Source of the DNA: a bacterium
Lineage (GTDB): Bacteria > Muiribacteriota > UBA9980
DNA length: 55,615 bases
Assembly (NCBI GenBank): GCA_029571125.1
Contig: JAKPTH010000501.1
Location: 1-55,615 of the forward strand
Direction: 5' to 3'
The position numbers and the translations under genes were made by a program. Below the pieces are notes generated by a model. It was not told where the DNA came from, made no database searches, and was given only the letters and a program-made list of their open reading frames with translations. Below, one piece after another: positions 1 to 33,288 of this stretch. Every line of letters begins with the position of its first letter. The stretch's first letter is position 1.

Positions 1-37
1 CCGCTTCGAGTAAACTTTTCATTGATACTACTGACAT
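1..37 (-). CDS. rpsB: 30S ribosomal protein S2, first 12 codons only (gene continues past the left edge)
   Basis: Reverse complement of 1-57 reads AAGGAGG-N10-ATG TCA GTA GTA TCA ATG AAA AGT TTA CTC GAA GCG = MSVVSMKSLLEA. This is the conserved S2 N-terminus (compare B. subtilis MSVISMKQLLEAGVHFGH). Too short to appear in the ORF track. Confidence 0.6.
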   Translation of the reverse strand, partial: MSVVSMKSLLEA

Positions 38-160
38 TTGAGTAACTCCTCCTTATGGTTTTATTCCGCCACGAACGTCTTTTTTTTGTAAAATCCGCCG
101 CCACATGATGTTTTCAGTGTAACGCCGGGCACCTTCACAAAAATCGGTTCGTGTGTGAAT

Positions 161-169
161 TGCTATAAT
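161..169 (+). promoter_or_regulatory. possible extended -10 promoter (TGcTATAAT) pointing toward the repeat/GC-island region
   Basis: TGCTATAAT at 161-169; no good -35. The only plausible plus-strand start signal upstream of the 206-627 elements. Confidence 0.25.
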
Positions 170-205
170 TTTATCACAAAATTAAACATTTTGCAAGATT
201 TTTTA

Positions 206-311
206 GGCATGAACCATATAAATTTTTTCGAAAACTCGTTTGAAAGTCATTTCGGAATTTTCATCGCTCGTGCTCCTGCTTCTTCATGAATGACAGCTCT
301 TAAATTTTTAT
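206..311. repeat. AT-rich, shortened paralogue of the 5' part of the 343-627 GC-rich element
   Basis: 220-275 aligns without gaps to 381-436 with 43/56 identities (AAATTTTTTCG...CTCGTT...CGCTCGTGCTC). 10 of the 13 mismatches are A/T here versus G/C in the downstream copy. GGCAT 206-210 matches GGCAG 366-370. Confidence 0.55.
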
Positions 312-342
312 TAAGAACAATTGAATTTTAAACTGGTTCTCT

Positions 343-627
343 TGTGTTTTAAGCGGGTAGTTTATGGCAGGGCGCCAGACAAATTTTTTCGGGGACTCGT
401 TCAAAAATCCCTCCGGGATTTTTGCCGCTCGTGCTCGGGCGCCGCACGCCGATGCCGTCCGTGGCGCGTGCGGCATTAGGGCTTCCGTGCCCCGACCTCT
501 CGCCCATCCATGACTCCAGATAAGCTTCTTGCCCGACAGACATGGATGTCTTAGTGCCGCCGATGCCATGGATGGCAAGGAGGCGGCCCTCAAAAATTTT
601 GTCTGGCCCCTGCTACACGCTTAAAAG
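343..627. ncRNA. candidate large structured RNA of unknown class (alternative: MITE-like inverted-repeat element)
   Basis: GC-rich island: row 421-480 is 44/60 G+C, versus 26/60 in 241-300 and 11/60 in 741-800. Closing helices are 347-360/613-626 (13 of 14 bp) and 368-393/587-612 (~25 bp with small bulges). Internal perfect hairpins are 403-411/415-423 and 441-449/466-474. Segment 504-512 has two alternative partners, 541-548 and 567-575. The overlapping ORFs have no recognisable protein features. Confidence 0.4.
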
Positions 628-706
628 CAACTTAAAAATAGGTTGATGAGCCTTATTGCTAATAATAAAACTTTATGCTGACTCACCGGCAGGCCATTAT
701 TGCTGC

Positions 707-734
707 GCAGACGCGCGCGTAAGCGCGTGTCTGC
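707..734. other. 12-bp GC-rich hairpin with GTAA (GNRA) tetraloop
   Basis: GCAGACGCGCGC-GTAA-GCGCGTGTCTGC (one G-T pair). It is followed on the plus strand by a long polypurine A-rich tract (735-815). There is no U-tract in either orientation, so it is not a canonical terminator. Confidence 0.4.
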
Positions 735-894
735 AAAAAAACAGAAATAGAAAAAGAAATTTTAGCAGTTAAGAAAAAATAAAGAAAATCAGAAAAAAAT
801 TGTAGCGGCATGAGAGAAAAGCGCATATGAATTAAAGCGTCGGCGGAAAAGCCGGCACAAACAGGCATAAAGCGTCAGGGAAATCGGGGGTTGG

Positions 895-986
895 AAGGGA
901 TTATAAGGGAAGGGAGGGGCCGTTGGCACCTCGCCTTCCCTTATCCAAAAATTTTGAATTAATTTTATCCGTACAAAATGAAAAGC
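895..986 (+). repeat. copy A of a ~90-nt conserved hairpin element (second copy at 20727-20820)
   Basis: AAGGGATTaTAAGgGAAGGGAGGGG stem (903-917 pairs with 929-944; 15 bp with one bulge), then CTTATCCAAAAA, then ACAAAATGAAAA 29 nt after the stem. Same order, spacing and orientation as copy B. Confidence 0.6.
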
Positions 987-1012
987 GGTTTAAATTTCAA
1001 ATCGTAAACAAT

Positions 1013-2074
1013 CTATCTTTTAACGACAACGCCGTAGTAGCTTCTGGTTGTCCAGATGGCATTGAAAGCTGCGGTGCCGTAGCGAAGTTGTTTTCCGGTC
1101 CAGGGGTCGTTGACGTAAACGTATCCGTCTTTTACGCCCGTGACTACCATGCAGTGGCCGTCGGCCATGCCGTAGCTGCGGGTATCGACGTAAACTATAA
1201 CGGGTATTCCGCTGGCCGTGGTGCTTTTAAGCCAATCTATATTTGCGCCGCCGCCGGCGAAGCTGCCGTTGAGGCCCAATTTTTTAGCCGCGTTGAGCAT
1301 ATCGTCGGAATAAGTAGTGCCTTTAGTGTCGGTATTGCAGAGTTTAGCCACTTCTTTTGTGCTGAGTTTTATGCCGTGATATTCAAGGACCATTGCAAGG
1401 CATGTAGGGGCGCAGTAATGCGTACCGTTAGGGCCGTTGGCCGGATCGAGCTGGGTGCGCAGCGGGACGTCGAGCAATTTTTCGCCTTTAGAGCCGCCTC
1501 CGAAAAGGCCGCTGAAAAAATCCAATATGCTGGCGAAAAAGCCTTTATTTTTAGCCAGGGAGCCGGTTTCGCGGAGTACGCGGTCGGTTACCAGCTCCGA
1601 ATTGGGGAGCGGATTATAGTTAGTCTGAGCGTTCTGATTGGAATTTGAATTATTTGCGTTATTCGAGCCGTTGTTGGAGTTATTTGCCGCAGAGTCAGTT
1701 TCGCGGTTGCGTGTATCGCGGGTATTAGATTCGGCGGGTTCGCTTCCCTGGTTCTGGTTTACCTGCGGCGAAGCGTTCTGCTGCTTGAGCATGGCATCGT
1801 ACTGTGATTTATAGTACATGTAAATTTGGAGTTTTTCATCGGATTCGCGGCCGCTTATTTTATCGTTGTTAAAATCGTTTATAGCCTGCATGCATTCTTT
1901 ATAAGACGCCTGCATCAGGGTTTGGGCTTCGGTAACTGTTCTGGGCTTTTTGAGTCCGAGCCGGTCCGCGTCTGTGTCTGTGAGCATATTTTGGGCGTAA
2001 ACGGCGAACGCGGCAAGAAAGAATGCGGCGGTCAATAACGATATAAAAATTTTATTTTTAGATTTATTCGACAT
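1013..2074 (-). CDS. secreted papain-fold cysteine peptidase, C39-like C-terminal domain
   Basis: ORF 1013..2083; start moved to ATG 2074 (AAGGGTG 6 nt upstream). Signal peptide KIFISLLTAAFFLAAFAVYA, an N/S/Q-rich low-complexity linker, then GTHYCAPTCLAMVLEYHG ... GHCMVVTG ... VNDPW (Cys/His/Asp order of C39-like peptidases). Confidence 0.6.
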   Translation of the reverse strand: MSNKSKNKIFISLLTAAFFLAAFAVYAQNMLTDTDADRLGLKKPRTVTEAQTLMQASYKECMQAINDFNNDKISGRESDEKLQIYMYYKSQYDAMLKQQNASPQVNQNQGSEPAESNTRDTRNRETDSAANNSNNGSNNANNSNSNQNAQTNYNPLPNSELVTDRVLRETGSLAKNKGFFASILDFFSGLFGGGSKGEKLLDVPLRTQLDPANGPNGTHYCAPTCLAMVLEYHGIKLSTKEVAKLCNTDTKGTTYSDDMLNAAKKLGLNGSFAGGGANIDWLKSTTASGIPVIVYVDTRSYGMADGHCMVVTGVKDGYVYVNDPWTGKQLRYGTAAFNAIWTTRSYYGVVVKR

Positions 2075-2118
2075 ACAAATCACCCTTTCATTTCAGCGTC
2101 ATAAAACGATTCACAATA

Positions 2119-8458: not shown

Positions 8459-10306
8459 TTATTTTTTTGATTTTACGAATTTTTCGATCTCCGCCATGAA
8501 AATTTTTCCATAGCGTCTGAGCTTATTCTGCCCCACGCCGCTGACTTCAAGAAATTCTTCCGCGGTGGAAGGCAGCAGACTGCACATGCCGTTCAGCGCA
8601 GCATCGGAAAAAATAAGATACGGAGGAACTCTCTGCTTATCGGCCAATTCGCGCCGCAGCGCTTTTAGTATATCGAAAAGTCGCATATCGCCCGCATTTT
8701 CGGCCGACGTTGGTTTGGCCGGCTGTTTGGCGGCGGCCCGTTTTTTTTCGGGTTTGCCTTTATTATGTTTTATCATTATGGTTTCTTCGTTTTCAAGCGC
8801 CGCGGCGCCTTTTTCGCTCAAAGAAATAGTGCGGTAGACGCTTTCGTCTATAGTTAAATAGCCTGAAGCCGCCATCGAAGATATGAGATCTTTAATGGCC
8901 GGAGCTGAAAATTCCTTTAACGCCCCGTAAGACGGGATCGCGTCGAAGCCGTATTCTGAGGCTCTCTCGAAATTTTCGCCGCGAAGCACTTCTGCGGTAA
9001 AAGAGCTTCCGAAGCGTTCACCCATATGTTTAACGCATGAAAGCACCTTTGCGGCCTGAACGGTCATGTCCGCGAGGCTGCCCGTGCTTATGCAATTGCC
9101 GCAGTTACCGCATCCGCATTCGCCGGGTTTTTCGCCAAAATATTTTAAAACGTAACTTCTAAGGCAAGAGCCGGTAGAGCAGTATTCGATCATCTGCGAA
9201 AGTTTTCTCAGCTCGTTGGTTTTATCAGTGCGCGGCGCGCCGGCGGCGTCTTTATCCCTGTCGCTGTTTTCGATCAGGAATTTATTCATTATTATGTCGG
9301 AGCCGGAAAACAGCAGCACGCATTCGGATTTTTCACCGTCGCGGCCCGCTCTGCCCGCTTCCTGATAATAGCTTTCTATATTTTTAGGCATATTATAATG
9401 CAGCACGAACCTGACGTTTGATTTATCTATACCCATTCCGAAAGCGTTAGTCGCGACGATGACGCCCGCCTGATCGTATATAAACTTTTCCTGCGCGGCT
9501 TTTCTTTCTTTCATTGGAAGTCCGGCATGGTATCTGACGGATTCTATTCCGGCGTTTTTAAGCTTTTCGTGAACGCTCTCCACCAGTTTTCTGGTTATGC
9601 AATATATAATACCGCTCTTTCCTGAATTTTTGCGAAGGTAATCGAGCATGAACTCGCATTTATCGGCCGGCCTGTCGACTTCGAAATAAAGGTTTTTACG
9701 GTCAAATCCAGTCACAACGGTTACCGGATCGTCGAGCTTAAGAAGTTTTACGATATCCTCTTTAACCAGCGGCGTCGCGGTGGCGGTAAAAGCCGACACG
9801 ACCGGCTTTTTTTTGAACATAGATATCATTTCGGCTATTTTAAGGTAGCTCGGACGGAAATCGTGGCCCCACTGAGATACGCAATGGGCCTCGTCTATAG
9901 TCACCATGCTCACGCGGATCTCGTTTAATATCTTTAAAAAGCTCGGGTTTTCAAGTCTTTCGGGGGCGACATAAATCAATTTATATGTCCCTTTTAAAGC
10001 CTCGCTTTCGATGCTTCTGTATTCGTTAACGGTAAGGGTGCTGTTTATAAAAGCGGCCGGCAATCCGGCCTGGCGAAGCGATTCGACCTGGTCTTTCATC
10101 AGGGATATGAGCGGCGATATGACTATAACAACGCCTCTGGCCATAAGCGCGGGGATCTGAAAGCATAGCGATTTGCCGGCGCCGGTCGGCATTATTCCCA
10201 GCGCGTCGCGGCCCGATATGATAGCCGAGATAAGCTCCGGCTGGCCGTCTCTAAATTGAGAATAGCCGAAATACTGGCGCAATAATTTAAGAGGATGTGT
10301 AAGCAT
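8459..10306 (-). CDS. recQ: ATP-dependent DNA helicase RecQ
   Basis: LRQYFGYSQFRDGQ, GAGKSLCFQIPAL (Walker A), DEAHCVSQWGHDFRPSY, a Zn-binding Cys cluster and a C-terminal HRDC-like region. Start moved from TTG 10327 to ATG 10306 because TTG 10327 lies inside the promoter spacer. Confidence 0.9.
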   Translation of the reverse strand: MLTHPLKLLRQYFGYSQFRDGQPELISAIISGRDALGIMPTGAGKSLCFQIPALMARGVVIVISPLISLMKDQVESLRQAGLPAAFINSTLTVNEYRSIESEALKGTYKLIYVAPERLENPSFLKILNEIRVSMVTIDEAHCVSQWGHDFRPSYLKIAEMISMFKKKPVVSAFTATATPLVKEDIVKLLKLDDPVTVVTGFDRKNLYFEVDRPADKCEFMLDYLRKNSGKSGIIYCITRKLVESVHEKLKNAGIESVRYHAGLPMKERKAAQEKFIYDQAGVIVATNAFGMGIDKSNVRFVLHYNMPKNIESYYQEAGRAGRDGEKSECVLLFSGSDIIMNKFLIENSDRDKDAAGAPRTDKTNELRKLSQMIEYCSTGSCLRSYVLKYFGEKPGECGCGNCGNCISTGSLADMTVQAAKVLSCVKHMGERFGSSFTAEVLRGENFERASEYGFDAIPSYGALKEFSAPAIKDLISSMAASGYLTIDESVYRTISLSEKGAAALENEETIMIKHNKGKPEKKRAAAKQPAKPTSAENAGDMRLFDILKALRRELADKQRVPPYLIFSDAALNGMCSLLPSTAEEFLEVSGVGQNKLRRYGKIFMAEIEKFVKSKK

Positions 10307-10317
10307 AATTCGGGGTG

Positions 10318-10346
10318 ATTGTATCAAAATAAGCGAAAAATGTCAA
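10318..10346 (-). promoter_or_regulatory. sigma70-type promoter for recQ, giving a ~5-nt SD-less leader
   Basis: Minus strand reads TTGACA (10346-10341), a 17-nt spacer, then TACAAT (10323-10318). ATG 10306 is 11 nt after the -10 box. Confidence 0.55.
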
Positions 10347-10467
10347 TAAAACCCCAAAAAAGTATAAATTAAAATTGGTTCTTTCTCGATTTGTGTGGGT
10401 AAAACTTTTTAATCAAGTTTAAAGTTCAGAGTGGAGAATTAAAGGATTTTTCATATTTTATTAATAA

Positions 10468-10484
10468 AGCTCGCAGGGCGAGCT
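10468..10484 (-). terminator. hairpin downstream of the GT2/GT4 operon
   Basis: AGCTCGC-AGG-GCGAGCT, followed on the minus strand by TTATTAATAAAAT (weak U-tract). Confidence 0.35.
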
Positions 10485-10490
10485 CCAACC

Positions 10491-10523
10491 TTAACTATTC
10501 ACTATTCACTCTACACTATTGAC
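10491..10523 (+). repeat. 33-nt intergenic repeat, copy 2 (copy 1 at 4832-4864)
   Basis: See 4832-4864. A partially inverted match, AGTTCAGAGTGGAGAATTAA, lies at 10423-10442. Confidence 0.5.
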
Positions 10524-10586
10524 TAATACCTACCCATATGAAATAAAAACAGCCTTAAAATTTTATAAAACCGTATGGCGTGCTTC

Positions 10587-19907: not shown

Positions 19908-20705
19908 GTGAAAAAAACTACGGCGTTATTCCTTTGTATTCTGTCCGTTATTATATCGGTATTACCCTCGGCGGCTGAAGCCTTCGAAAATTCGCGGTTC
20001 AAGTCAGAAACTCTTTTTAGCGGCCGCGACTACAAGCGTCTTTCGTTAGCCGAACAAGAAAAATTCGAAACGGCATATAGAAAAGCAGCAGAACCTCTTT
20101 CACCGGCGCGCCTTATCGACCCAGAAGTTACTCGCGCAAATATATTCGAGTGTTATAGCTGTCTGGCCGAAGAAAAAAATCTCCAAATTATAATGCGCGA
20201 ATGCTTTTCAGCTGGAGCAGGACTGACCGTTTGGGCGCGCCATAAAAAAGGCTCATCTTACAACATATCCGCAGTAATAACGGTCCCGGCCGAAAATCAA
20301 GATTTCATAAATATTCTCACAAAAAAACATTCGGCTAAAAAACTCGGCAAGGCTTCACTGCGAATTAAAATCAGCTGCGGAGCCGATTCCGGTCATACCG
20401 CCAATCTCGAGTCAGAATCGACTATCATTCTTGATTATAAGGAATGCAACGCCGTCGTCTGGTCAATAAAAGACATTCACATGGGATATGAAACCGGCCT
20501 CGAAACTGTTTTAAAAAAATACTTTCCCGAATGCCTTGAAAAGACTTCTATAATAGATCCCGAAGGAGTTTCCGAAAATTCTCGCATTCTGGTAGCGCCC
20601 AGGCTGACCATAGATATGAGAGCAGTGAATGACGAAGGGCATAATCATGACGATTCTCTTTATTATGGCGAGCTGAAGTTCGATACAATCAAATACGAAA
20701 AATAA
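19908..20705 (+). CDS. secreted protein of unknown function
   Basis: ORF 19857..20705; start moved to GTG 19908 so the product begins VKKTTALFLCILSVIISVLPSAAEA (signal peptide). Confidence 0.45.
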   Translation: MKKTTALFLCILSVIISVLPSAAEAFENSRFKSETLFSGRDYKRLSLAEQEKFETAYRKAAEPLSPARLIDPEVTRANIFECYSCLAEEKNLQIIMRECFSAGAGLTVWARHKKGSSYNISAVITVPAENQDFINILTKKHSAKKLGKASLRIKISCGADSGHTANLESESTIILDYKECNAVVWSIKDIHMGYETGLETVLKKYFPECLEKTSIIDPEGVSENSRILVAPRLTIDMRAVNDEGHNHDDSLYYGELKFDTIKYEK

Positions 20706-20726: not shown

Positions 20727-20820
20727 AAAGGGATTTTAAGAGAAGGGAGGGGGGTTTTTGCCCCTCTCTTCTCTTATCCAAAAAAATATTTTATTTTTTT
20801 ATACACACAAAATGAAAAAG
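20727..20820 (+). repeat. copy B of the ~90-nt conserved hairpin element (copy A at 895-986)
   Basis: AAGGGATTtTAAGaGAAGGGAGGGG; stem 20737-20752 pairs with 20761-20776 (16 bp, one G-T). Then CTTATCCAAAAA, then ACAAAATGAAAA 31 nt after the stem. The stem change G->A is matched by C->T in the partner arm. Confidence 0.6.
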
Positions 20821-20842
20821 AGCCTATTTTGTCATTAAATGC

Positions 20843-20878: not shown

Positions 20879-22474
20879 ATGGAAAAAACTCTTGCGCTTA
20901 AAAATTTAATAACTTCTCCGGGGCTCGAATTCATTATGGAAGCCCATAACGGGATATCGTCAAAAATAGTTGAAGAGGCCGGATTCAAGGGTATCTGGGC
21001 GAGCAGCCTTTCTATTTCGGCGTCGCTCGGAGTGCGCGACAACAACGAAGCGTCGTGGACGCAGATACTCGAAATACTGGATTTTATGAATGATTCGGTC
21101 GAAATACCCATTTTATTCGACGGCGATACGGGTTACGGCAATTTCAATAACGTGCGGCGGCTCGTAAAAAAGCTCGAACAGATAAATATCGCCGGGATAT
21201 GCATCGAAGATAAAATTTTTCCAAAAACCAATTCATTCATAAGAAGCGAAACGCAGCCGTTAGCCTCCATAGAGGAATTTTGCGGCAAAATCAAGGCCGC
21301 GTGCGATGTGAGGCGCGACAAAAACTTCACGGTCGTGGCCCGCACCGAGGCGTTTATAGCCGGATACGGCCTGGAGGAAGCGCTTAAGCGCGCCGAAGCA
21401 TACAGGGAAGCCGGGGCGGACGCCATACTGGTCCACAGCAAAAAATCCAACCCTTCCGATATAGAAGCGTTTATGAAAAACTGGGGCGAAAAGCTGCCAG
21501 TTATAATAGTGCCGACCAAATATTACTCGACCCCGACCGAAGTTTTTAAAGATTTAAAGATAAGCCTTATAATATGGGCAAACCATATGATCCGCTCCGC
21601 CGTTACAAATATGCAGAAAATCGCCGCGCGAGTTTATTCGGACAAAAGCCTTATCAACGTAGAAGACCAGATAGCTTCGGTGGCGGAGCTTTTTAGATTA
21701 CAGGGCGACGAAGAGCTGCGCGAGGCCGAAAAAAAATATCTTCCGGCCGCGGGCAAAAACTTCAACGCCGTGGTTCTCGCCGCAAGCCGCGGCAATCTTG
21801 GAGAATTGACCGAATCCATTCCTAAAACGCTCATACACATAGACGGAAAGCCTATACTTTTCAATATAATAGACAACTTCAACCAGACCGGTATAAAAGA
21901 TATAACGGTGGTGCGCGGCTTTGCAAAAGACAAAATAAAAGCTCAAAACGTCAATTTTATTGATAACGATGAATACGGCAGCACCAGCGAGCTCTATTCG
22001 CTTTACCTCGCGCTCGGCGTAATTCGTGAAAACACCATAATTTGCTATGGCGATATAGTTTTTAAAAGCTATATTTTAAACGAATTGATCAACGACCCCG
22101 GCGGCATAACTATAGTGGCGGACGCCGATTACGAATACGACGGCACTCCCCGCTTCGACTATGTCAAAACAAGCGCGGCATATTCGAAAAAACTGTATTC
22201 GCAGAGCGTAAATTTTATAAAAATGTCGCCTGAGCTTCCAAAAGAAGAAATCGGCGGAGAATTTATAGGACTTATCAAAGTGAGCGGAGAAGGCGCAGCC
22301 GCAATGCGCGAATGCATAAAATCAATGAGCCGCAGTGAAAATTTCAAGAAGCTTGGAATGCAGGACCTCCTCGATGAACTTGCAAAAAGAATGCCCGTCC
22401 TTGTTAAGTTTATAAAAGGTTCGTGGTTGAACGTAAATAACGTAATAGATCTGCAGAAAAGCGTAAATTTGTAA
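20879..22474 (+). CDS. pepM: phosphoenolpyruvate phosphomutase fused to a LicC/PntC-like nucleotidyltransferase domain
   Basis: The N-terminal ~290 aa carry [34 protein letters not shown] and the PepM signature EDKX5NS ([12 protein letters not shown]). The C-terminal ~240 aa carry [32 protein letters not shown] (NTP-transferase G-loop). Confidence 0.85.
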
Positions 22475-26079: not shown

Positions 26080-29000
26080 ATGAAACAAAATATCAAAAGC
26101 CAGACGCGATCGGCAGCGCTTTCGTTAGCTTTAATGCTCATAGTTATTTTCACGCAGGGATGCGTAAGCGGAGGTGGCGGATTTAATAACTCGGGCGGAA
26201 CGCCGCCCGTAACCGTTAATTATAACACTACGGTTTCAGGTTATCTTTACGACGATTCGATTTCGTCGCCGGCGCTTTACGCGGGCCTTGCTGCTTCGCG
26301 ATCGGTCATAATAGTGGCCGAAAAGAAACAATATACCGTGCCGACGGACGGCGCCGGCTTCTTCAAAGCCGATATAGAACTTTTAAACGCTTCGTCGACC
26401 GTTATAATTAAATTTCAGAAAAAAGACAAAACGGTCGTTTCCGGCGAATACATCTTTGAAAAAGGCGGAGTTTACTGTCTGAACGCCTTGATAGAAGGCG
26501 GAACCAGACTTAAAGTAAACGGGGACAAGCTATTTACATTTTCAAAAGTAGAGCATCCCGACAACTTGAAAATTGAAATTAAAAAAGTCCTCGACGAAAG
26601 GCAGAAAACCGCGACGGCCGTTACCCGCGTAACGGGCCGCGTCGTGGTAACCGCGCTTCTCGGCGGGGAAAATAATCCGCCGGCCGGCGTCATAAACACG
26701 GAAGAAGCGCCTTCGATTCCGATAGCCGGCGTTTTAGCGTCGCTTTCAAGCGGCCAGAGCGCCGCGACCGATTCCAACGGATACTTTAATATCGCATGCG
26801 ATTTAAAAGCCGGAAATTATTCTATATCGTTTAAAAAAATCGGCTACCCTGATAAAATAGTTAATTTTACGGTTGAAGCCAAAGATTACTCTCTCGCGTC
26901 CGTTAATTTCTTCGCCGAAATGGAGTCCGGCCTCAAATCTCTTACGTTAAGCAAGCAAAACGATAATATGAGCGAAAATTCAACCTATAACCTTTCAACG
27001 GTAAAAGCCATAGCGTCTTATTCCGATGGAGCCACCCGCGAGGTAGCCGTTACATGGACGGCTTCCGAAGGCGGCATAAATAATTCCATATTCACGCCGC
27101 CGGCTGGCAAAAAAGGACTGGTAGTCTTAACCGCTAAATATGTCGAAGGCGCTAAATCACAGACCGCCGTCCTCACCATATCGGTCAACGCGCTTTTAAA
27201 CTCGCTCACCTTGAGCAAATATTCAGAAACAATAGAAGCGAACGTGCCTTATGATTTAAGAACGGTTAAAACATTCGCCTCTTATTCCGACGGCACCACG
27301 CGCGAAGTCGGCGTCAACTGGCAGACGGACCGCGGAAGCGTTTCAGGATTTAATTACATACCGCCGGCCGGCTATCTCGGCGAAGTAATTTTTACGGCTT
27401 CGTACACAGAAATGCAGATAACTAAAAAAGCGTCATTTAACTTAAGAATATCTCGCGTAGTTAAAACGCTCACTTTAAGCAAGACATACGATGAAACTAC
27501 AGTCGGATCGGTTTATAAACTGGCTGAAATAACTGCCAGCGTTAATTATTCGGATAAAACATCCCGCGTAATAACTCCGGTATGGTCTTATAACGGCTTA
27601 GTGCTCGACGAACAGCGCGCATTTTTAGCGCCCGCCATACCGCAAAATATAACACTGACCGCGTCACACTCAGAAGACGGAATAAGCGCAACGGCGGTAA
27701 TCGATTTAAAGGTCAAACCGTTAATCACGGCGTTATCGAAATATATTGGCGTGCCTGGCGAAAAAATCACCATAACCGGTCTTGGTTTCGGAACTACTCG
27801 CGGCGACAGCCTAGTTAAATTCAACGACAAATATGCCTCTGATTTAGATATAGAATCATGGTCGAATACGCAAATTACATTAAAAGTTCCGGCAGACAGT
27901 ATACCCGGCCCGATCGCGGTCATAGTTAATCATATACAGAGCGACGGCGTTAATTTCGACGTAAGTCATATTGTTTCGATAACTCCGTCAACCGGAACCG
28001 CACAGACGATGGTAACAATCACAGGTAAGGGATTCGGTTCATCGCAAGGCGCTAATAAATTAAAATTCGGTGATATAGACACCACTGACATAATTTCGTG
28101 GTCCAACACAAAAATAGTGGCGCGTGTTCCTGCTAATGCACAATACGGCAAAGTATTCGTTGAAATTAATGGGCTGCGTACGAACGGCATTTCATTTGGC
28201 CTGACTTCGATATTTGCGATATCACCGGCAATAGTAAAACCCGGCGACACTATTACAATTACGGGCGCCGGATTCGGCGAAACGCAGGGAATGGCTGGCA
28301 GCGTTAAATTCAACGACACGAGCGCTTCATATATTAAAAAATGGTCAGACACGCATATCGAAACAATTGTTCCGCAGGACGTTAAATCAGGCTATTTAAC
28401 GGTCACGGCGGGCGGAATAACGAGCAACCGGTTTAAATACGATATGACATCTATATCGGGACTCGTTCCGGCGTTTGGATTCGCTGGCGATTGGGTCGAA
28501 ATTATGGGCGCTGGATTCGGCGATTCACAGATCGGTTCGTCGATAACTTTTAACGGCATGCCGGCATCCGTAATAGATAGTTGGTATAACGACATTATCA
28601 AAGTAAAAGTGCCTGCCGGCGCGGCAACGGGCAAAGTAAAAGTAAAAATAAATAATATCGAATATATCAGTGATAATAATTTTGAACTCACTTCGATATC
28701 TTCTATAAACCCTCATTACGGACCTGCCGGCACGGTCGTCGATATATACGGAACCGGGTTCGGCGAGGCGCGTGTCGGGCGCATCATTAAAATAGGCGCC
28801 ACAGAAATTAATGCAATCACATCATGGACGAATAATAAAATAACCGTAATAATTCCGGCTACGGCGATTTCTGGTACGATTAAGTTAATTTCCGGCGCAT
28901 CGGAAACTAACGCCGGCAACATATTCAACGTTACTAATATAGTATCCATAACGCCCGTGCGGGGCGTAATAGGCACGATCGTGACTATAAACGGATCTAA

Positions 29001-32000
29001 CTTTGGCGACACGCAGGGCACGGTTAAATTCGGGGCGACAGCCGCATCAGAAATAATATCATGGACGAATTCTAAAATAATAGTAAAAGTACCGGCAGAT
29101 GCGGTTTCCGGAAGTGTTTCGATAACATCTACCGGCGGCGCGGTTCATAACGGCTTCAATTTTGAAGTGGTTAATATAACACAGATAACACCTTCAGCAG
29201 GCACTTACGGCGATGAAATAACTATTTCGGGATCCGGGTTCGGCGTGACGCCCGCCATCGGTAATATCGTTAAAATAGGCACAATAAGCGTTTCTGAAAT
29301 TAAATCATGGTCGGATAGAGAAATTAAATTTATCGTGCCAGATAAATCGGTCAGCGCAAAAACGTCTGTCACGGTCAACGGCATTACGACTAACGGAGTC
29401 GATTTCAAAGTCATCGCTATTTCATCGTTATCACAAAATTACGGTCCTATCGGCATGCCTATTACAATTAAAGGTTCGGGATTCGGAGGCGCTCAAACTG
29501 TTAATAATTCGGTTAAATTCAGCGGCGCCGCCATTGCCGAAATCGATATAATCAAGTGGAGCGATACTGAAATTATCGCTAGAATACCGGCTTCGGCGGC
29601 AGCCGGCAGCGGTTCAATTCATATTTCATCGAACGGCGTTGCCAGCAATTCGGTAACTTTTGAAGTGACGCATATTAATTCGGTCAATCCGGTTCAGGGC
29701 ACCGCGGGTACTCAATTAATCATTTACGGCACCGGATTCGGCCCGTTGCGCGGATCTAATAATGTCATATTTAACTCGGCGAGCGCCGCCTCTATAGTTT
29801 CATGGGTAAACGATAAAATTACCGTGGCGGTTCCGGCTAATTCCGTTTCAGGCTTGCTCGAAGTGGTTATATCCGGCGTTAAAAGTAATTCTAAAGCTGT
29901 AAGCATTATTTCGATTAATTCACTATCAGCGATACGCGGCGCGGTTAATACTCAAATATCGGTAAACGGTACCGGCTTCGGCGGCACAAAGGGCGCAAAT
30001 AAAATATTAATAAATAATATCGAAATGCCCGTAGCTGGAGGTCTATGGACCGACAGCATGGTGCGTGTAACGATACCCGATAACGCCGTGTCAGGGTCAA
30101 TAAAAGCTGTCATTAATGATTTCGAAACTAACGCAATGCCGTTCGAAGTAGTGCGCTTTACGGTCGATGCTCCGATAGCGCCTGCATACGGCCCAACCGG
30201 CACGCTAGTTACGATCAACGGCTCAGGATTCGGCGCGACCAAAGGATCTGTCGCATTCAACGGCATCGGTGCGGCTTTAATCAATGAATGGAAAGATAAT
30301 AAAATAACCGCGACAATTCCAGCCGGTTCATCGTCCGGGCCTGTAACGGTTACTAGCGGCGACATAACATTATCATCGTCTCAGGCGTCTTTCAAGTTAA
30401 CTAAAATAAATTCCATAACACCATCCTACGGCCCGATCGGATCTACAATTAAACTCAACGGCGAAGGTTTCGGCGCAACGCAGGCCGGTAATTTAATTAA
30501 ATTCAACGGCGCAACGGCTTCAACGGCAGATATAGTATCGTGGAACGATAACTTTGTCGAGGTAAAAGTGCCGCATGGCGCTTCAAGCGGCGGCGTCAAA
30601 GTAAATATATGGGGTATCGATTCTGCGGCCTTTGATTTCACCGTCACCAATATAGCCAGTTTAGTGCCCGCGTACGGCCCAATCGGAACGCCGGTCACGA
30701 TCAACGGCGCAGGGTTCGGCGCGATCGCCGGAACCGTTAAATTCAATACTGCGACGGCTATCGTCGCGCCAGGCAACTGGAGCGATACCGCGATATTAAC
30801 CAGCGTTCCTGACGAAGCCCAATCCGGCGCCGTGAGCGTTAGCATATCCGGTATTTTAAATACCTGGACAGGGTTTAAAGTTACTAAAATCACCGCCATA
30901 GACCGTGAATTCGGGCCGGTCGGATTAAAAGTGACGATTAGCGGCGAAGGGTTCGGACCCGCCAGAGGCGGTAACGGCGTTTATTTCAACTCGCTGCCGG
31001 CGGCGGCTGAAGATTATTTTCTGTGGTCGGATGATTCGATAATCGTTAAAGTGCCGGCTGGAGCATCGAGCGGTAATATCAAAGTTAAGATCGGCGATTT
31101 ATATAGTAACGATAAAAGCTTTAAAGTATCGACGATAACCTCGCTCCTGCCTGATTATGGGCCTGCCGGAACAGTCGTCGATATCAACGGCACTGCTTTC
31201 GGCGCCACGCAGGGAACGGGACGCGTTCTTTACGGCGGTGTGAGCCTCGCGTCGGGCGATATATATTCATGGAGCGATACAAAAATAAGGGTTAAAGTGC
31301 CGGCCGGATCCGCCAGCAGCGCTTTTACCATCGAAGTAAACGGCAAGGCCACCAATCAATATAATTTTTTCATCACTAAAATCGACTCGATCGATAAGCT
31401 GAAAGTAACCGCCGGCGAGGTCATTAAAATTTACGGCTCCGGCTTCGGACCGGTTAAAGGCAACACCAGAGTGCTTTTTGACGCGCTAAATTCGGCGGCC
31501 GTCGAAGCGGTCGTCAATCAGGGCAACTGGAACAGGAATACCGTCGAGGTAATAGTTCCTTACGGCGCGGTGTCGGGTAATTTGCGCGTGGAAATGAACG
31601 GAATTACATCGCAAGCTTATGCATACCAGGCGCTTAATATTTCTTCGCTCACGCCGTTTGCCGGCACGGCGGGCCAGGAAGTGACCATAACCGGCTCGGG
31701 TTTCGGAGCGTTCCAGGCGGCCGGCGACACGGTCAAATTTGGCACCACTCCGGTCGAATCTAACGATTACCTCGGCTGGACCGATACGCAGATAAGGGTC
31801 AAGGTGCCGCCATTTGCCGAAAGCGGCGGCGTTACGGTGACCGCTGGCGGCATTACAAGCAACGGTTATCTATTCAATATAGTAAAGATCAGTTCGATCG
31901 CACCCAATCCGCTGAATACCGGGATCGATATAACCGTTTCCGGCAGCGGTTTCGGCACGACGCCTTCGGCCGTAAGCGTTAAATTCAACGATATCACCGC

Positions 32001-33288
32001 CGGCATCGTATCAGAATTATCCAATACTTCATTCAAAGTAAAAGTGCCCGCAAATACGGTCAACGGCAATCTCAGAGTGACGGTCAACGGCATAACGAGT
32101 AATGAAATTTCGTATAAACTGCTTAAAGTAACTACAGTAACGCCGGCATTCGCCAAACGCGGCGATGAAATAACTATAACCGGCGAAGGTTTCGGAGCGT
32201 CACAGGGCGTTAACAGCGTTAAGATAGGCGCATTTGATCTAACCGTATCTGTTTGGAGCGATACCGAAATTCGCGGCAATGTAGCCGCCGGAACACTTCC
32301 GGGCTATTTACGCATCGTGGTCAATAACGTCGAAAGTAATAAAGTATGGTTTGAAACCCAACTTAACTATAACTACATTTCTCAATTCGGCGGAACGGGC
32401 GCCGGCGATTCGCAGTTCAACGCCGCGGCGGACATAGCGCTCGATAGCGCTGGTAATATCTGGGCCGCCGACGCCAATAACCATCGCGTGCAAAAATTTA
32501 ATTCGGCCGGCACTCTTCTCGGCTGGATCGGGCGGGACAATACCGGCGGCTCTGGCTGGCACAACCCGCTTTCAGGTAAAACTTCAGTAAGCGGTTCCGG
32601 CAATTCAGAATTCGACACGGTGACGGGAGTCGCGGTCGATTCCACTAATAACCTGTACGTTGTCGATTCAGGCAATAAAAAAATCAAAAAATTCGATTCA
32701 AACGGAGGTTATATTAAAACATTCGAAACCCAGGCGTTGAGCATTGCGACCTTCTCGTCACCGTCAAAATTAGCCGTAGATATAGATTCTAATGTATATG
32801 TATCCGATTCGGTCACCAATAAAATCTTACGGTTTACATCTGACGGCAGTTTTGAAGTTGAATTCGGCGGGGCCGGCAACGGCAGCGGCCTGTTCAACGG
32901 CATATCGGGCATCGCAATATCCGCCGATAAAAAAATATTTATCGCCGATACCAATAACCATCGCGTACAGGTATTCGACGCTAACGGCATTTTCGTAACT
33001 TCCTGGGGCGGCTACGGAACCGGCAACGGCAAATTCAACGCCCCGGCAGGCATAACGGTCGACGGTGCGTCCAATGTATATGTGGCAGATACTTTCAATA
33101 ACCGTATACAAAAATTCACGCCGACGGGCGACTATATTCTAAGTTTAGGCGCTTCCGGCGCGGGCAATGGTCAGTTCAACAGGCCTTCGGGCATAGCGGT
33201 CAATATAGTACCGAGCACTTCGGCCGACACGATTTTCATCGCCGATAAAAATAATAACCGCGTGCAAAAATTTTTCAGGGAAAATTGA
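26080..33288 (+). CDS. giant (2402 aa) secreted/possibly lipidated surface protein: CarboxypepD_reg-like + 3 Big_2-like + 19 IPT/TIG + 6-bladed NHL propeller
   Basis: Single uninterrupted ORF. Signal peptide ending LIVIFTQGC (possible lipobox). SD TAAGGA. Domain evidence is given in the three sub-features. Confidence 0.9.
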   Translation: MKQNIKSQTRSAALSLALMLIVIFTQGCVSGGGGFNNSGGTPPVTVNYNTTVSGYLYDDSISSPALYAGLAASRSVIIVAEKKQYTVPTDGAGFFKADIELLNASSTVIIKFQKKDKTVVSGEYIFEKGGVYCLNALIEGGTRLKVNGDKLFTFSKVEHPDNLKIEIKKVLDERQKTATAVTRVTGRVVVTALLGGENNPPAGVINTEEAPSIPIAGVLASLSSGQSAATDSNGYFNIACDLKAGNYSISFKKIGYPDKIVNFTVEAKDYSLASVNFFAEMESGLKSLTLSKQNDNMSENSTYNLSTVKAIASYSDGATREVAVTWTASEGGINNSIFTPPAGKKGLVVLTAKYVEGAKSQTAVLTISVNALLNSLTLSKYSETIEANVPYDLRTVKTFASYSDGTTREVGVNWQTDRGSVSGFNYIPPAGYLGEVIFTASYTEMQITKKASFNLRISRVVKTLTLSKTYDETTVGSVYKLAEITASVNYSDKTSRVITPVWSYNGLVLDEQRAFLAPAIPQNITLTASHSEDGISATAVIDLKVKPLITALSKYIGVPGEKITITGLGFGTTRGDSLVKFNDKYASDLDIESWSNTQITLKVPADSIPGPIAVIVNHIQSDGVNFDVSHIVSITPSTGTAQTMVTITGKGFGSSQGANKLKFGDIDTTDIISWSNTKIVARVPANAQYGKVFVEINGLRTNGISFGLTSIFAISPAIVKPGDTITITGAGFGETQGMAGSVKFNDTSASYIKKWSDTHIETIVPQDVKSGYLTVTAGGITSNRFKYDMTSISGLVPAFGFAGDWVEIMGAGFGDSQIGSSITFNGMPASVIDSWYNDIIKVKVPAGAATGKVKVKINNIEYISDNNFELTSISSINPHYGPAGTVVDIYGTGFGEARVGRIIKIGATEINAITSWTNNKITVIIPATAISGTIKLISGASETNAGNIFNVTNIVSITPVRGVIGTIVTINGSNFGDTQGTVKFGATAASEIISWTNSKIIVKVPADAVSGSVSITSTGGAVHNGFNFEVVNITQITPSAGTYGDEITISGSGFGVTPAIGNIVKIGTISVSEIKSWSDREIKFIVPDKSVSAKTSVTVNGITTNGVDFKVIAISSLSQNYGPIGMPITIKGSGFGGAQTVNNSVKFSGAAIAEIDIIKWSDTEIIARIPASAAAGSGSIHISSNGVASNSVTFEVTHINSVNPVQGTAGTQLIIYGTGFGPLRGSNNVIFNSASAASIVSWVNDKITVAVPANSVSGLLEVVISGVKSNSKAVSIISINSLSAIRGAVNTQISVNGTGFGGTKGANKILINNIEMPVAGGLWTDSMVRVTIPDNAVSGSIKAVINDFETNAMPFEVVRFTVDAPIAPAYGPTGTLVTINGSGFGATKGSVAFNGIGAALINEWKDNKITATIPAGSSSGPVTVTSGDITLSSSQASFKLTKINSITPSYGPIGSTIKLNGEGFGATQAGNLIKFNGATASTADIVSWNDNFVEVKVPHGASSGGVKVNIWGIDSAAFDFTVTNIASLVPAYGPIGTPVTINGAGFGAIAGTVKFNTATAIVAPGNWSDTAILTSVPDEAQSGAVSVSISGILNTWTGFKVTKITAIDREFGPVGLKVTISGEGFGPARGGNGVYFNSLPAAAEDYFLWSDDSIIVKVPAGASSGNIKVKIGDLYSNDKSFKVSTITSLLPDYGPAGTVVDINGTAFGATQGTGRVLYGGVSLASGDIYSWSDTKIRVKVPAGSASSAFTIEVNGKATNQYNFFITKIDSIDKLKVTAGEVIKIYGSGFGPVKGNTRVLFDALNSAAVEAVVNQGNWNRNTVEVIVPYGAVSGNLRVEMNGITSQAYAYQALNISSLTPFAGTAGQEVTITGSGFGAFQAAGDTVKFGTTPVESNDYLGWTDTQIRVKVPPFAESGGVTVTAGGITSNGYLFNIVKISSIAPNPLNTGIDITVSGSGFGTTPSAVSVKFNDITAGIVSELSNTSFKVKVPANTVNGNLRVTVNGITSNEISYKLLKVTTVTPAFAKRGDEITITGEGFGASQGVNSVKIGAFDLTVSVWSDTEIRGNVAAGTLPGYLRIVVNNVESNKVWFETQLNYNYISQFGGTGAGDSQFNAAADIALDSAGNIWAADANNHRVQKFNSAGTLLGWIGRDNTGGSGWHNPLSGKTSVSGSGNSEFDTVTGVAVDSTNNLYVVDSGNKKIKKFDSNGGYIKTFETQALSIATFSSPSKLAVDIDSNVYVSDSVTNKILRFTSDGSFEVEFGGAGNGSGLFNGISGIAISADKKIFIADTNNHRVQVFDANGIFVTSWGGYGTGNGKFNAPAGITVDGASNVYVADTFNNRIQKFTPTGDYILSLGASGAGNGQFNRPSGIAVNIVPSTSADTIFIADKNNNRVQKFFREN
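26923..27717 (+). repeat. 3 tandem Big_2-like Ig repeats (~87 aa each) within the giant CDS
   Basis: Recurring L(K/N/K)(S/T)LTLSK...Y.L..V.A.ASYSDG.TREV.V.W... pattern. Confidence 0.6.
27721..32358 (+). repeat. 19 tandem IPT/TIG repeats (~81 aa / ~244 nt each) within the giant CDS
   Basis: Nineteen occurrences of I.SI.P..G..G..VTI.G.GFG..QG...V.F......I.SW.D..I...VP..A.SG.V.V...G..SN...F.V. I counted the G(F/N/A)FG-type motifs one by one. The copies are diverged at the DNA level. Confidence 0.8.
32371..33285 (+). repeat. 6 NHL repeats (beta-propeller) at the C-terminus of the giant CDS
   Basis: ADANNHRVQKFNSAG, VDSGNKKIKKFDSNG, SDSVTNKILRFTSDG, ADTNNHRVQVFDANG, ADTFNNRIQKFTPTG, ADKNNNRVQKFFREN. 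Confidence 0.8.

Follow-up and report, generated by a model that had tools for sequence, protein, structure and literature searches.

The window (the whole 55,615-nt stretch of DNA that was analysed) begins next to rpsB (start at 37), which is followed by a gene at 1013-2083 (-) for a C39-like peptidase, a protein with no record in an exact look-up. The 975 bp between the two genes are, as the earlier note had it, free of credible coding sequence: the ORFs there are short, overlapping and not conserved. A 15-codon ORF (676-723), considered as a type I toxin-like small conserved ORF, was dropped as it is not conserved among the copies described below. The interval holds a GC-rich island at 343-627 (57.5% G+C vs 45.0% for the window), which belongs to a larger, modular block. 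The parts of this block, where H is the structured module and TIR a terminal inverted repeat, are:

205-281 (+): decayed, truncated older copy of the left half of H, beginning exactly at the end of the match to relatives

282-334 (+): AT-rich leader linker, CAGCTCTTAAAWTTTTATT...TTTTAAAC, conserved between copies in their multiple alignment

335-362 (+): left TIR of the H element, GGTTCTCTTGTGTTTTAAGCGGGTAGTT, aligning to the reverse complement of 613-631 and to the family TIR consensus GGYTCTTTTTCATTT..GGGTA

365-615 (+): H core, a long closing helix (365-393 with 587-615) around a three-way junction, from the covariance model, RNAalifold and pair counts

402-424 (+): invariant hairpin of the H core, CAAAAATCCC-TCC-GGGATTTTTG (inverted repeat I14)

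437-497 (+): optional insertion I1, two GC-rich hairpins (GCCGCACGC/GCGTGCGGC and GGGC..GCCC), in a subset of copies of both lineages

513-585 (+): optional insertion I2 with CATGGATG repeats, taking the place of the right arms of the apical helices

613-631 (+): right TIR of the H element, CTACACGCTTAAAAGCAAC

632-951 (+): composite tail, with a GC hairpin (707-734), an A-rich tract of variable length (~735-800) then a G-rich terminal hairpin (903-944) with an A-run after it, supported by inverted repeats I11 and I12

959-988 (+): outer right TIR, motif M (TTTTATCCGTACAAAATGAAAAGCGG), the reverse complement of the family left-end consensus; the same motif ends solo H in GWC2-type genomes

The decayed left half of H is recognised from a direct repeat (214-275 vs 375-436, 76%) and is overlain by a weak covariance-model match (194-320, E=0.003). 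The last 8-mer of the leader, TTTAAACT (327-334), flanks the H element, and TTTAAACAAG-like sequence precedes all H copies of the window/ADurb lineage. The left TIR includes the left arm of the outer helix (347-360, TTTTAAGCGGGTAG) and the right TIR its right arm (613-626, CTACACGCTTAAAA); the right TIR is followed by TTAAAAAT (consensus TTAAACAA) and the outer right TIR by TTTAAATT (989-996). Insertion I1, which is present in L015, L017, L032, L040 and L041 and missing from the 144-nt short form of H, includes a compensatory C-G to A-U change (GCCGCACGC vs GCAGCACGC with GCGTGCGGC vs GCGTGCTGC). Insertion I2 is common only to a minority of copies, those of the L012/L049, L063, L064, L061 and L068 type. 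Because of I1 and I2, the window copy is GC-rich and 285 nt long compared to the usual ~145 nt; this atypical make-up also accounts for its score of 130 bits (covariance-model match at 339-630, E 8e-31), where typical copies reach ~215 bits. The tail is conserved in ~21 copies, and compensatory changes in its terminal hairpin are visible in the alignment.

The folding of 343-627 is real and far above chance level. On the + strand the MFE is -142.6 kcal/mol, compared to -100.4 +/- 5.0 for dinucleotide shuffles (z -8.5, 0/200), and on the - strand it is -135.5 (z -6.9 vs shuffles). Every helix, hairpin and segment described earlier for the island was found in place, including those at 368-393, 587-612, 403-423, 441-449/466-474, 504-512, 541-548 and 567-575. 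Independent repeat finding recovered the outer helix as inverted repeat I7 (347-360/613-626, 93%), the second closing helix as 371-394/587-610 (83%), the perfect hairpin as I14 (402-411/415-424) and a further pairing as I15 (505-515/538-548). The row G+C counts of the earlier note (44/60, 26/60 and 11/60) are exact on recount; its premise of an AT-rich genome is wrong, the window being 45% G+C. The island itself was correctly seen, with natural boundaries that are wider than drawn: the H element spans 335-631 and the composite ~282-988. The arrangement of CCATCCATG and CATGGATG(G), taken at first as switch-like, is no feature of the family, as it lies in the minority insertion I2; the apical hairpin seems to have been duplicated in inverted orientation to give it, and each CATGGATG lies within its own small palindrome (AGACATGGATGTCT and GCCATGGATGGC). 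No described RNA family matches the island: Rfam 15 at gathering thresholds gave no match in the whole window, and at E<=10 only noise overlapped 343-627 (MIR918, 16 bits vs a threshold of 268). ARAGORN found neither tRNA nor tmRNA.

The block is an insertion upstream of rpsB. On the contigs that carry homologues of the C39-like peptidase (~75% identity), rpsB follows after just ~170-190 bp. In five related contigs (L001/2/3, L005 and L009), in which window 1-204 is 88-90% identical, position 204 joins position ~1011, and 205-1010 is thus missing from the orthologous site; L009 has an unrelated 185-nt insert there. A copy of the element occupies the same rpsB site in contig MWBZ01000049 of the MAG ADurb.Bin243 (L008, 96% identical), with a core that is 122 nt shorter than in the window and another upstream module. 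The orthologous copy in L008/L036 is without I1 and without I2, and whole modules differ between the window and ADurb.Bin243. Among metagenome contigs of the sampled population, filled and empty alleles were not seen, only length polymorphisms; A-rich tracts differ in length between contigs that are otherwise identical. The 75%-identity relatives yielded no H in ~100 kb of their sequence.

Copies of H are numerous in related genomes. A degenerate 23-base pattern, derived from the direct repeat in the window and run on a species-representative genome collection, matched 31 loci (~38 sites), 27 in ADurb.Bin243 and four in Candidatus Wallbacteria GWC2_49_35. A second pattern added 54 metagenome loci from anaerobic digesters and activated sludge; metagenome contig L043 is identical to the window. 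With the H model, cmsearch gave 93 matches at E<1e-14, ~36 of them in ADurb.Bin243, the sister MAG, which has at least 36 copies of H. Many family matches are located at contig ends, and the genes that neighbour H copies are diverse and unrelated among themselves. Scans of a viral collection with the H core and with the tail gave no matches, and literature on Wallbacteria repeats and on the H hairpin sequence offered nothing relevant.

Alignments of the copies define five modules: H itself (usually 144 nt, GGGCAGG to CTGCTA), the AT-rich leader, an optional X (AGTGNAT heptamer repeats, then a small hairpin), the ~320-nt tail and the terminal motif M. The H module occurs solo, in tandem, truncated or within a composite, and simple members of the family are 178-227 bp with only short, non-conserved ORFs. 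Within one MAG, paralogous H copies share 81-97% identity (mean 89%); no two of them are the same, and they thus reflect no recent burst. Between the ADurb and GWC2 lineages H is 84-91% identical, while the flanks of the two lineages do not align. The family looks like an old one that has been retained, or made more uniform by recombination.

Read on the opposite strand, motif M (TTTTACCCACAnAAAATGAAAAAGAGCC) matches the conserved 5' flank of H (GGCTCTTTTTCATTT..TGGGTA); thus, the elements have terminal inverted repeats. These are ~26 bp long with the consensus GGYTCTTTTTCATTTnnnTGGGTA, and their ungapped identity is 18/28 in L051, L067 and L013. Motif M is also found in the window at ~20797-20826 and 10377-10404. 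The outer helix of the island (347-360/613-626) consists of the terminal repeats of the H element itself. Directly outside the inverted ends of four clean members lie AT-rich target-site duplications (TSDs) of 8 bp:

X-type element of the window, 10377-10554 (-), 178 bp: TTAAAATT / TTAAAATT, 8/8

X-type element of L021, 4577-4766, 190 bp: GTTAATTT / ATTAATTT, 7/8

solo H of L051, 5997-6223, 227 bp: CCTTTTTA / CTTTTTTA, 7/8

solo H of L067, 1526-1751, 226 bp: AGTAAGTT / AGTAATTT, 7/8

For 8-mers displaced outward from the same ends, the mean match is 2.3/8 and 0/330 reach 7. Five of ten curated elements have no duplication (2-4 of 8), and their ends are degenerate or truncated. The window copy at rpsB has a 7/8 match (327-334 vs 989-996), which is weak evidence, as the leader, conserved between copies, itself contains the left 8-mer. 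This composite is without an outer left end; in its place stands the decayed left half of H (205-281), with its start exactly where native sequence ends. In the ADurb/window lineage, TTAAACAA-like sequence lies on both sides of every H. The simplest reading of these flanks is that H inserted once into a larger member of its own family and that all composites probably inherited this one nested arrangement. The 3' end (...TATCAAAAAA) had been viewed as the sharp boundary of the element, and truncated 'H stubs' upstream of X as signs of rolling-circle or retro-type copying; this view was dropped once M proved to be the inverted left end and the TSDs emerged.

The island is very probably a copy of a previously undescribed MITE family of a Wallbacteria-like lineage, and the family itself can with good confidence be classed, on its ends and duplications, as a non-autonomous transposon of the TIR/TSD type. 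The alternative reading of the earlier note, a non-autonomous element with ~45-bp imperfect TIRs, is thus essentially right: the outer helix corresponds to the TIRs, and family members have 8-bp TSDs. The same note expected a MITE to appear in many copies with TSDs and to show no covariation. Copies and TSDs are both present, and by that measure the MITE reading wins; the covariation described below is present as well. Its leading proposal, a novel structured ncRNA, holds for the structure (no Rfam match, and covariation in 77 distinct copies) and fails for a single housekeeping-type gene (at least 36 copies in one MAG, and an empty site in relatives), surviving only as the possibility that the core of the MITE is a selected RNA module. 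The H element (335-631) is nested in a larger composite assembled from modules of its own family, namely the leader, the tail and, at 959-988, the outer right end; the older truncated copy (205-281) adjoins the composite, and the optional insertions I1 and I2 are carried at the apex. In the proposed scheme, a DDE transposase acting in trans would recognise the terminal repeats and move the copies, and mosaic arrays would arise by nested insertion and recombination between copies.

The ends of the family are GGCTCTTTTT, GGTTCTTTTT or GGTTCCTTTT and start with GGCTCTT, GGTTCTT or GGTTCC. IS6-family ends (GGCTCTGTTGCAAA, with an 8-bp duplication) also look similar to them. An enzyme of the predicted ISL3 type is preferred as the mover of the family, at about an even chance by analogy, because the repeats start with GGCTCTT/GGTTCTT and the duplication is 8 bp; the likeness to ISL3 is limited to the first ~7 terminal bases and the duplication length. 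Published ISL3 elements (ISArsp7 and ISPst2) have inverted repeats that start with GGCTCTT (GGCTCTTCGCGG...) and 8-bp direct repeats (CCTTTGCC, TTTTTAAA and CAAAAAAG) (PMC6305408, table 3). A Microcystis MITE with ends GGCTCTTCG and 8-nt direct repeats was attributed to ISL3 on those two features (PMC11448079). In the ~0.6 Mb of sequence examined, there is no autonomous element or transposase with matching ends, and no two family ends spaced by 0.7-3.5 kb make a credible frame for an autonomous IS. No recurrent protein or transposase was found beside the copies, and both BLAST of the TIR consensus against plasmids and a literature search for GGCTCTTTTT-type inverted repeats returned only noise.

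The fold of the H core is conserved in the family. A MAFFT alignment of 18 distinct short-form copies is almost gap-free; from it RNAalifold derived a consensus with 51 pairs, and compensatory double changes affect 11 of these. The covariance model built from this alignment gathered 93 copies, of which 77 are distinct, from both lineages. In the 77 distinct copies, 97.1% of cells are paired (89.4% when shuffled), 25/51 pairs have changed on both sides (12.4 in shuffles) and the covariation score is 0.146 vs 0.051 (0/500), these values being read from an alignment made by the covariance model, from copies that form subfamilies and against shuffle tests that ignore phylogeny. A control in which pairing partners are slid by 1-3 columns, so that relatedness is preserved, gave scores of <=0.03 and 35.8-57.2% paired. 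Several pairs occur as three Watson-Crick types in similar numbers (AU25/UA23/GC22 and GC30/CG15/UA9); the first of these (pair 65/85) closes the hairpin at 402-424. The loops of H are highly conserved, and compensatory changes are present in 13/31 pairs of the internal helices 2-6. While covariation in the long closing helix could reflect co-evolution of the extended inverted ends, a DDE transposase should not need helices 2-6. The covariation points to selection on the H fold, possibly as RNA. Such a covarying inner three-way-junction fold is unusual for a MITE.

The strand and setting of the copies bear on a role in RNA. G-U pairs exceed A-C mismatches on the window + strand by 87:21 (39:20 when one terminal pair is left out, and 12:6 for the internal helices), a modest hint that the + strand is the folded one. 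In GWC2-type genomes, 8/9 solo H point the same way as the nearest upstream gene (one-sided binomial P ~0.02), and the seven closest model matches begin between 11 nt inside the upstream ORF call and 34 nt past it (the model has a 27-nt 5' flank); in L025 and L067, H lies behind a terminator, at 84-85 nt. This arrangement places solo H of GWC2-type genomes in the predicted 3' UTR, in sense orientation. The composites of the ADurb lineage follow no orientation rule, the 5' neighbour being divergent in 14/20, and the window H is antisense to both neighbouring genes. The organism uses canonical sigma-70 promoters (TTGACA-17-TACAAT, 10346-10318 (-)) as well as U-tract terminators; within the unit, no convincing conserved promoter or terminator of these canonical kinds was found. 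The terminal hairpin of the tail was rejected as an intrinsic terminator, since no U-tract follows it on either strand, though these genomes have canonical terminators.

The best guess is that selection would act on the RNA when the element is co-transcribed, for example where a stable structure in the 3' UTR would shield the upstream transcript or bring it to its end. Selection of this kind on the core is the preferred explanation of the covariation, albeit a tentative one that falls somewhat short of an even chance. A more ambitious and rather doubtful proposal is that the MITE serves as a vehicle for a selected multi-helix RNA module with a three-way junction, conserved loops and optional I1. 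Candidate roles of the module would be, for example, a 3'-UTR stabiliser, a terminator or a protein-binding element. Transposition would spread H to many transcription units, and selection per copy or per lineage would maintain it. This proposal would explain the covarying fold, the conservation of H between lineages to the same degree as within a genome, and the sense copies just past stop codons.

Some of the same observations would suit a family of trans-acting structured ncRNA genes, each with its own promoter and terminator and copied by duplication, for which the inverted ends and direct repeats would be incidental. Strong covariation, conserved loops and optional peripheral domains are features of real structured RNAs; H is ~85-90% identical across two lineages with non-aligning flanks; and GU exceeds AC on one strand. 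Gene status is nonetheless improbable in light of the independent members with differing 8-bp duplications directly outside inverted ends, the empty orthologous site in relatives, the common truncated, nested and tandem copies, and an orthologue in the sister MAG that differs by 122 nt of apex. Nor does such a gene family fit the antisense position of the window H relative to both flanking genes or the missing conserved sigma-70 promoter and U-tract terminator in an organism that uses canonical ones.

A transposon with TIRs and TSDs, the preferred reading, also accounts for the ends better than a single-stranded DNA hairpin element moved by an HUH (Y1) enzyme, either of the REPIN/BIME type with a RAYT or as an IS200/IS605-derived PATE. 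The fold would then be an ssDNA recognition structure, and hairpins kept by compensatory change (as in REPINs), GGTAG/CTAC motifs at the foot of the outer helix and a subterminal tail hairpin followed by TATCAA are in line with this. Such elements are without TSDs and without TIRs; the H family has both, and the TSDs argue so strongly against an HUH enzyme that this origin is very improbable. The left and right ends have no similar hairpins in direct orientation, and a phmmer search, a weak test, found no IS200/RAYT-like ORF in H-flanking loci.

It is slightly less probable still that the family is an inert, decaying repeat in which conservation of structure is an artefact of subfamily relatedness and a model-fitted alignment. 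The reliance on the covariance model for alignment, the existence of subfamilies and the neglect of phylogeny by the shuffles would all favour an artefact; the slid-partner controls keep relatedness and yet fall far from the observed score and paired fraction, three Watson-Crick types are about equally frequent at several pairs, and the MAFFT-only alignment of 18 ungapped copies already has the 11 compensatory pairs. Least probable of all is an RNA-mediated SINE-like retroelement, with a ~650-nt transcript and A-rich 3' end reverse-transcribed in trans: 5' truncation and template switching would explain truncated left parts of H joined variably to X, and the 3' boundary is constant (...CCCTTATCAAAAAA) with variable 5' extents, chimeric junctions at differing points and tail-only fragments (window 20728-20826 and L017 2157-2422), but fixed-length 8-bp duplications and inverted ends suit a DDE transposon, fragments that are internal or have lost their 3' end occur as often as those cut at the 5' end, a reverse transcriptase was not seen and is not known, and the promoter would not travel with the transcript.

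As a MITE family, the H elements resemble several known systems in part. The ISL3-derived MITEs (e.g., of Microcystis aeruginosa, PMC11448079) are likewise non-coding and multi-copy, with simple forms of 180-230 bp, TIRs beginning GGCTCTT/GGTTCTT and an 8-bp AT-rich TSD. By contrast, the H-family repeats diverge from the published ISL3 examples after their first 7 bases, the search for a cognate ISL3 transposase with matching ends came up empty, and the H family has a conserved covarying inner fold and nested composites of 650-800 bp. The Correia elements, MITEs of Neisseria, are similarly interspersed and intergenic, often near gene ends, with inverted ends and TSDs, and form long hairpins when co-transcribed with neighbouring genes, as is predicted for the H family; they differ in having a TA duplication and a simple hairpin, where H has 8-bp duplications and a three-way junction with optional domains. 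The BOX elements of Streptococcus pneumoniae and BIME/NIME are intergenic, strongly folded by prediction and modular with variable number and order of modules, as are the H, X, leader, tail and M modules here; unlike the H family, they have no demonstrated transposon ends of the TIR and TSD kind. REPINs are also old, slowly evolving hairpin repeats with stems kept by compensatory mutation (compare the 81-97% identity of H paralogues), but are ~100 nt long, without TSDs or inverted transposon ends, and tied to a RAYT gene, none of which applies to H. Orphan structured RNA motifs that occur in many copies and are tied to mobile elements (e.g., HEARO / IscB omega-RNA) share with H covariation-supported folds and tens of copies per genome, many without an adjacent ORF; H differs in having no Rfam match, no nuclease ORF and no sharp guide-adjacent boundary.

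For the organism, the island is mobile-element DNA and not a new housekeeping RNA, which removes a false lead and accounts for the breaks in assemblies of these genomes at such sites. The terminal repeats, the 8-bp duplication and the covariance model are usable signatures of the family, in a candidate phylum for which, as far as literature searches show, no mobile elements have so far been described. If the fold acts as RNA in host 3' ends, the family would offer a clear example from nature of a transposon distributing a structured regulatory RNA module.

The window carries, besides the copy of the non-coding MITE family in the block at 205-1010 upstream of rpsB, a second and complete member, a solo fragment, two promoter-type sites and two ORFs that require comment:

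196-168, - strand: TG-extended promoter-like site (TTGCAA-17-TAAAAT) inside the rpsB upstream region
923-1648, + strand: listed ORF of 241 aa; the conserved gene for the C39 peptidase (1013-2083, - strand) runs antisense to it
10346-10318, - strand: sigma-70 promoter of canonical form (TTGACA-17 nt-TACAAT), preceding the gene at 8459-10327
10377-10554, - strand: complete family member of the X type, 178 bp
20728-20826, + strand: solo family fragment, G-rich terminal hairpin plus right-end motif M
26080-33288, + strand: very long ORF of 2402 aa

The element at 10377-10554 consists, in order, of a left inverted end, the X module (AGTGNAT heptamer repeats and a small hairpin) and the right end M, and is bounded by a perfect 8-bp TSD (TTAAAATT, at 10369-10376 and 10555-10562). 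It differs in type from the copy upstream of rpsB. The gene that precedes the solo fragment ends at 20705, its stop codon lying about 25 nt before the start of the fragment, and the gene starting at 20879 lies downstream. The terminal hairpin of the fragment shows compensatory changes (GGG>GAG / CCC>CTC).

In all tails (632-951 in the rpsB-upstream copy), the 5' arm of the terminal hairpin (886-925, + strand) is a G-tract run, GGGG-TT-GG-AA-GGG-ATTTTAA-GGG-AA-GGG-A-GGGG, which matches a G-quadruplex motif and includes several SD-like words (GGAGG/AAGGG); the loop of the invariant hairpin of the core module H is CCUCC. The A-rich tract of the tail (about 735-800) is composed of repeated AAAAAACAGAA-like units and differs in length between comparison contigs that are otherwise 100% identical (L012 versus L049 and L018 versus L082; 37-39 nt and 13-15 nt), a variation that reflects either replication slippage or assembly instability. 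The start of the 241-aa ORF falls within the repeat tail, and this ORF is almost certainly spurious.

The rpsB upstream region (42-204, - strand) shows 88-90% identity to its counterpart in relatives that share only about 75% identity in the neighbouring protein, and it gives a sub-threshold Rfam match to the rpsB leader (RF01815), scoring 20.5 bits (E 0.15) where the gathering score is 40. The MITE block starts at 205, immediately upstream of the -35 box of the promoter-like site. In L009, a related genome, an unrelated AT-rich insert of 185 nt (1140-1325) occupies the same position between the C39-peptidase gene and rpsB, which suggests that this intergenic site is an insertion hot spot.

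The textbook promoter at 10346-10318 lies about 30 nt downstream of the 10377-10554 element. It shows that E. coli-like promoters are in use in this uncultivated lineage and provides a yardstick for promoter claims at other sites of the window.
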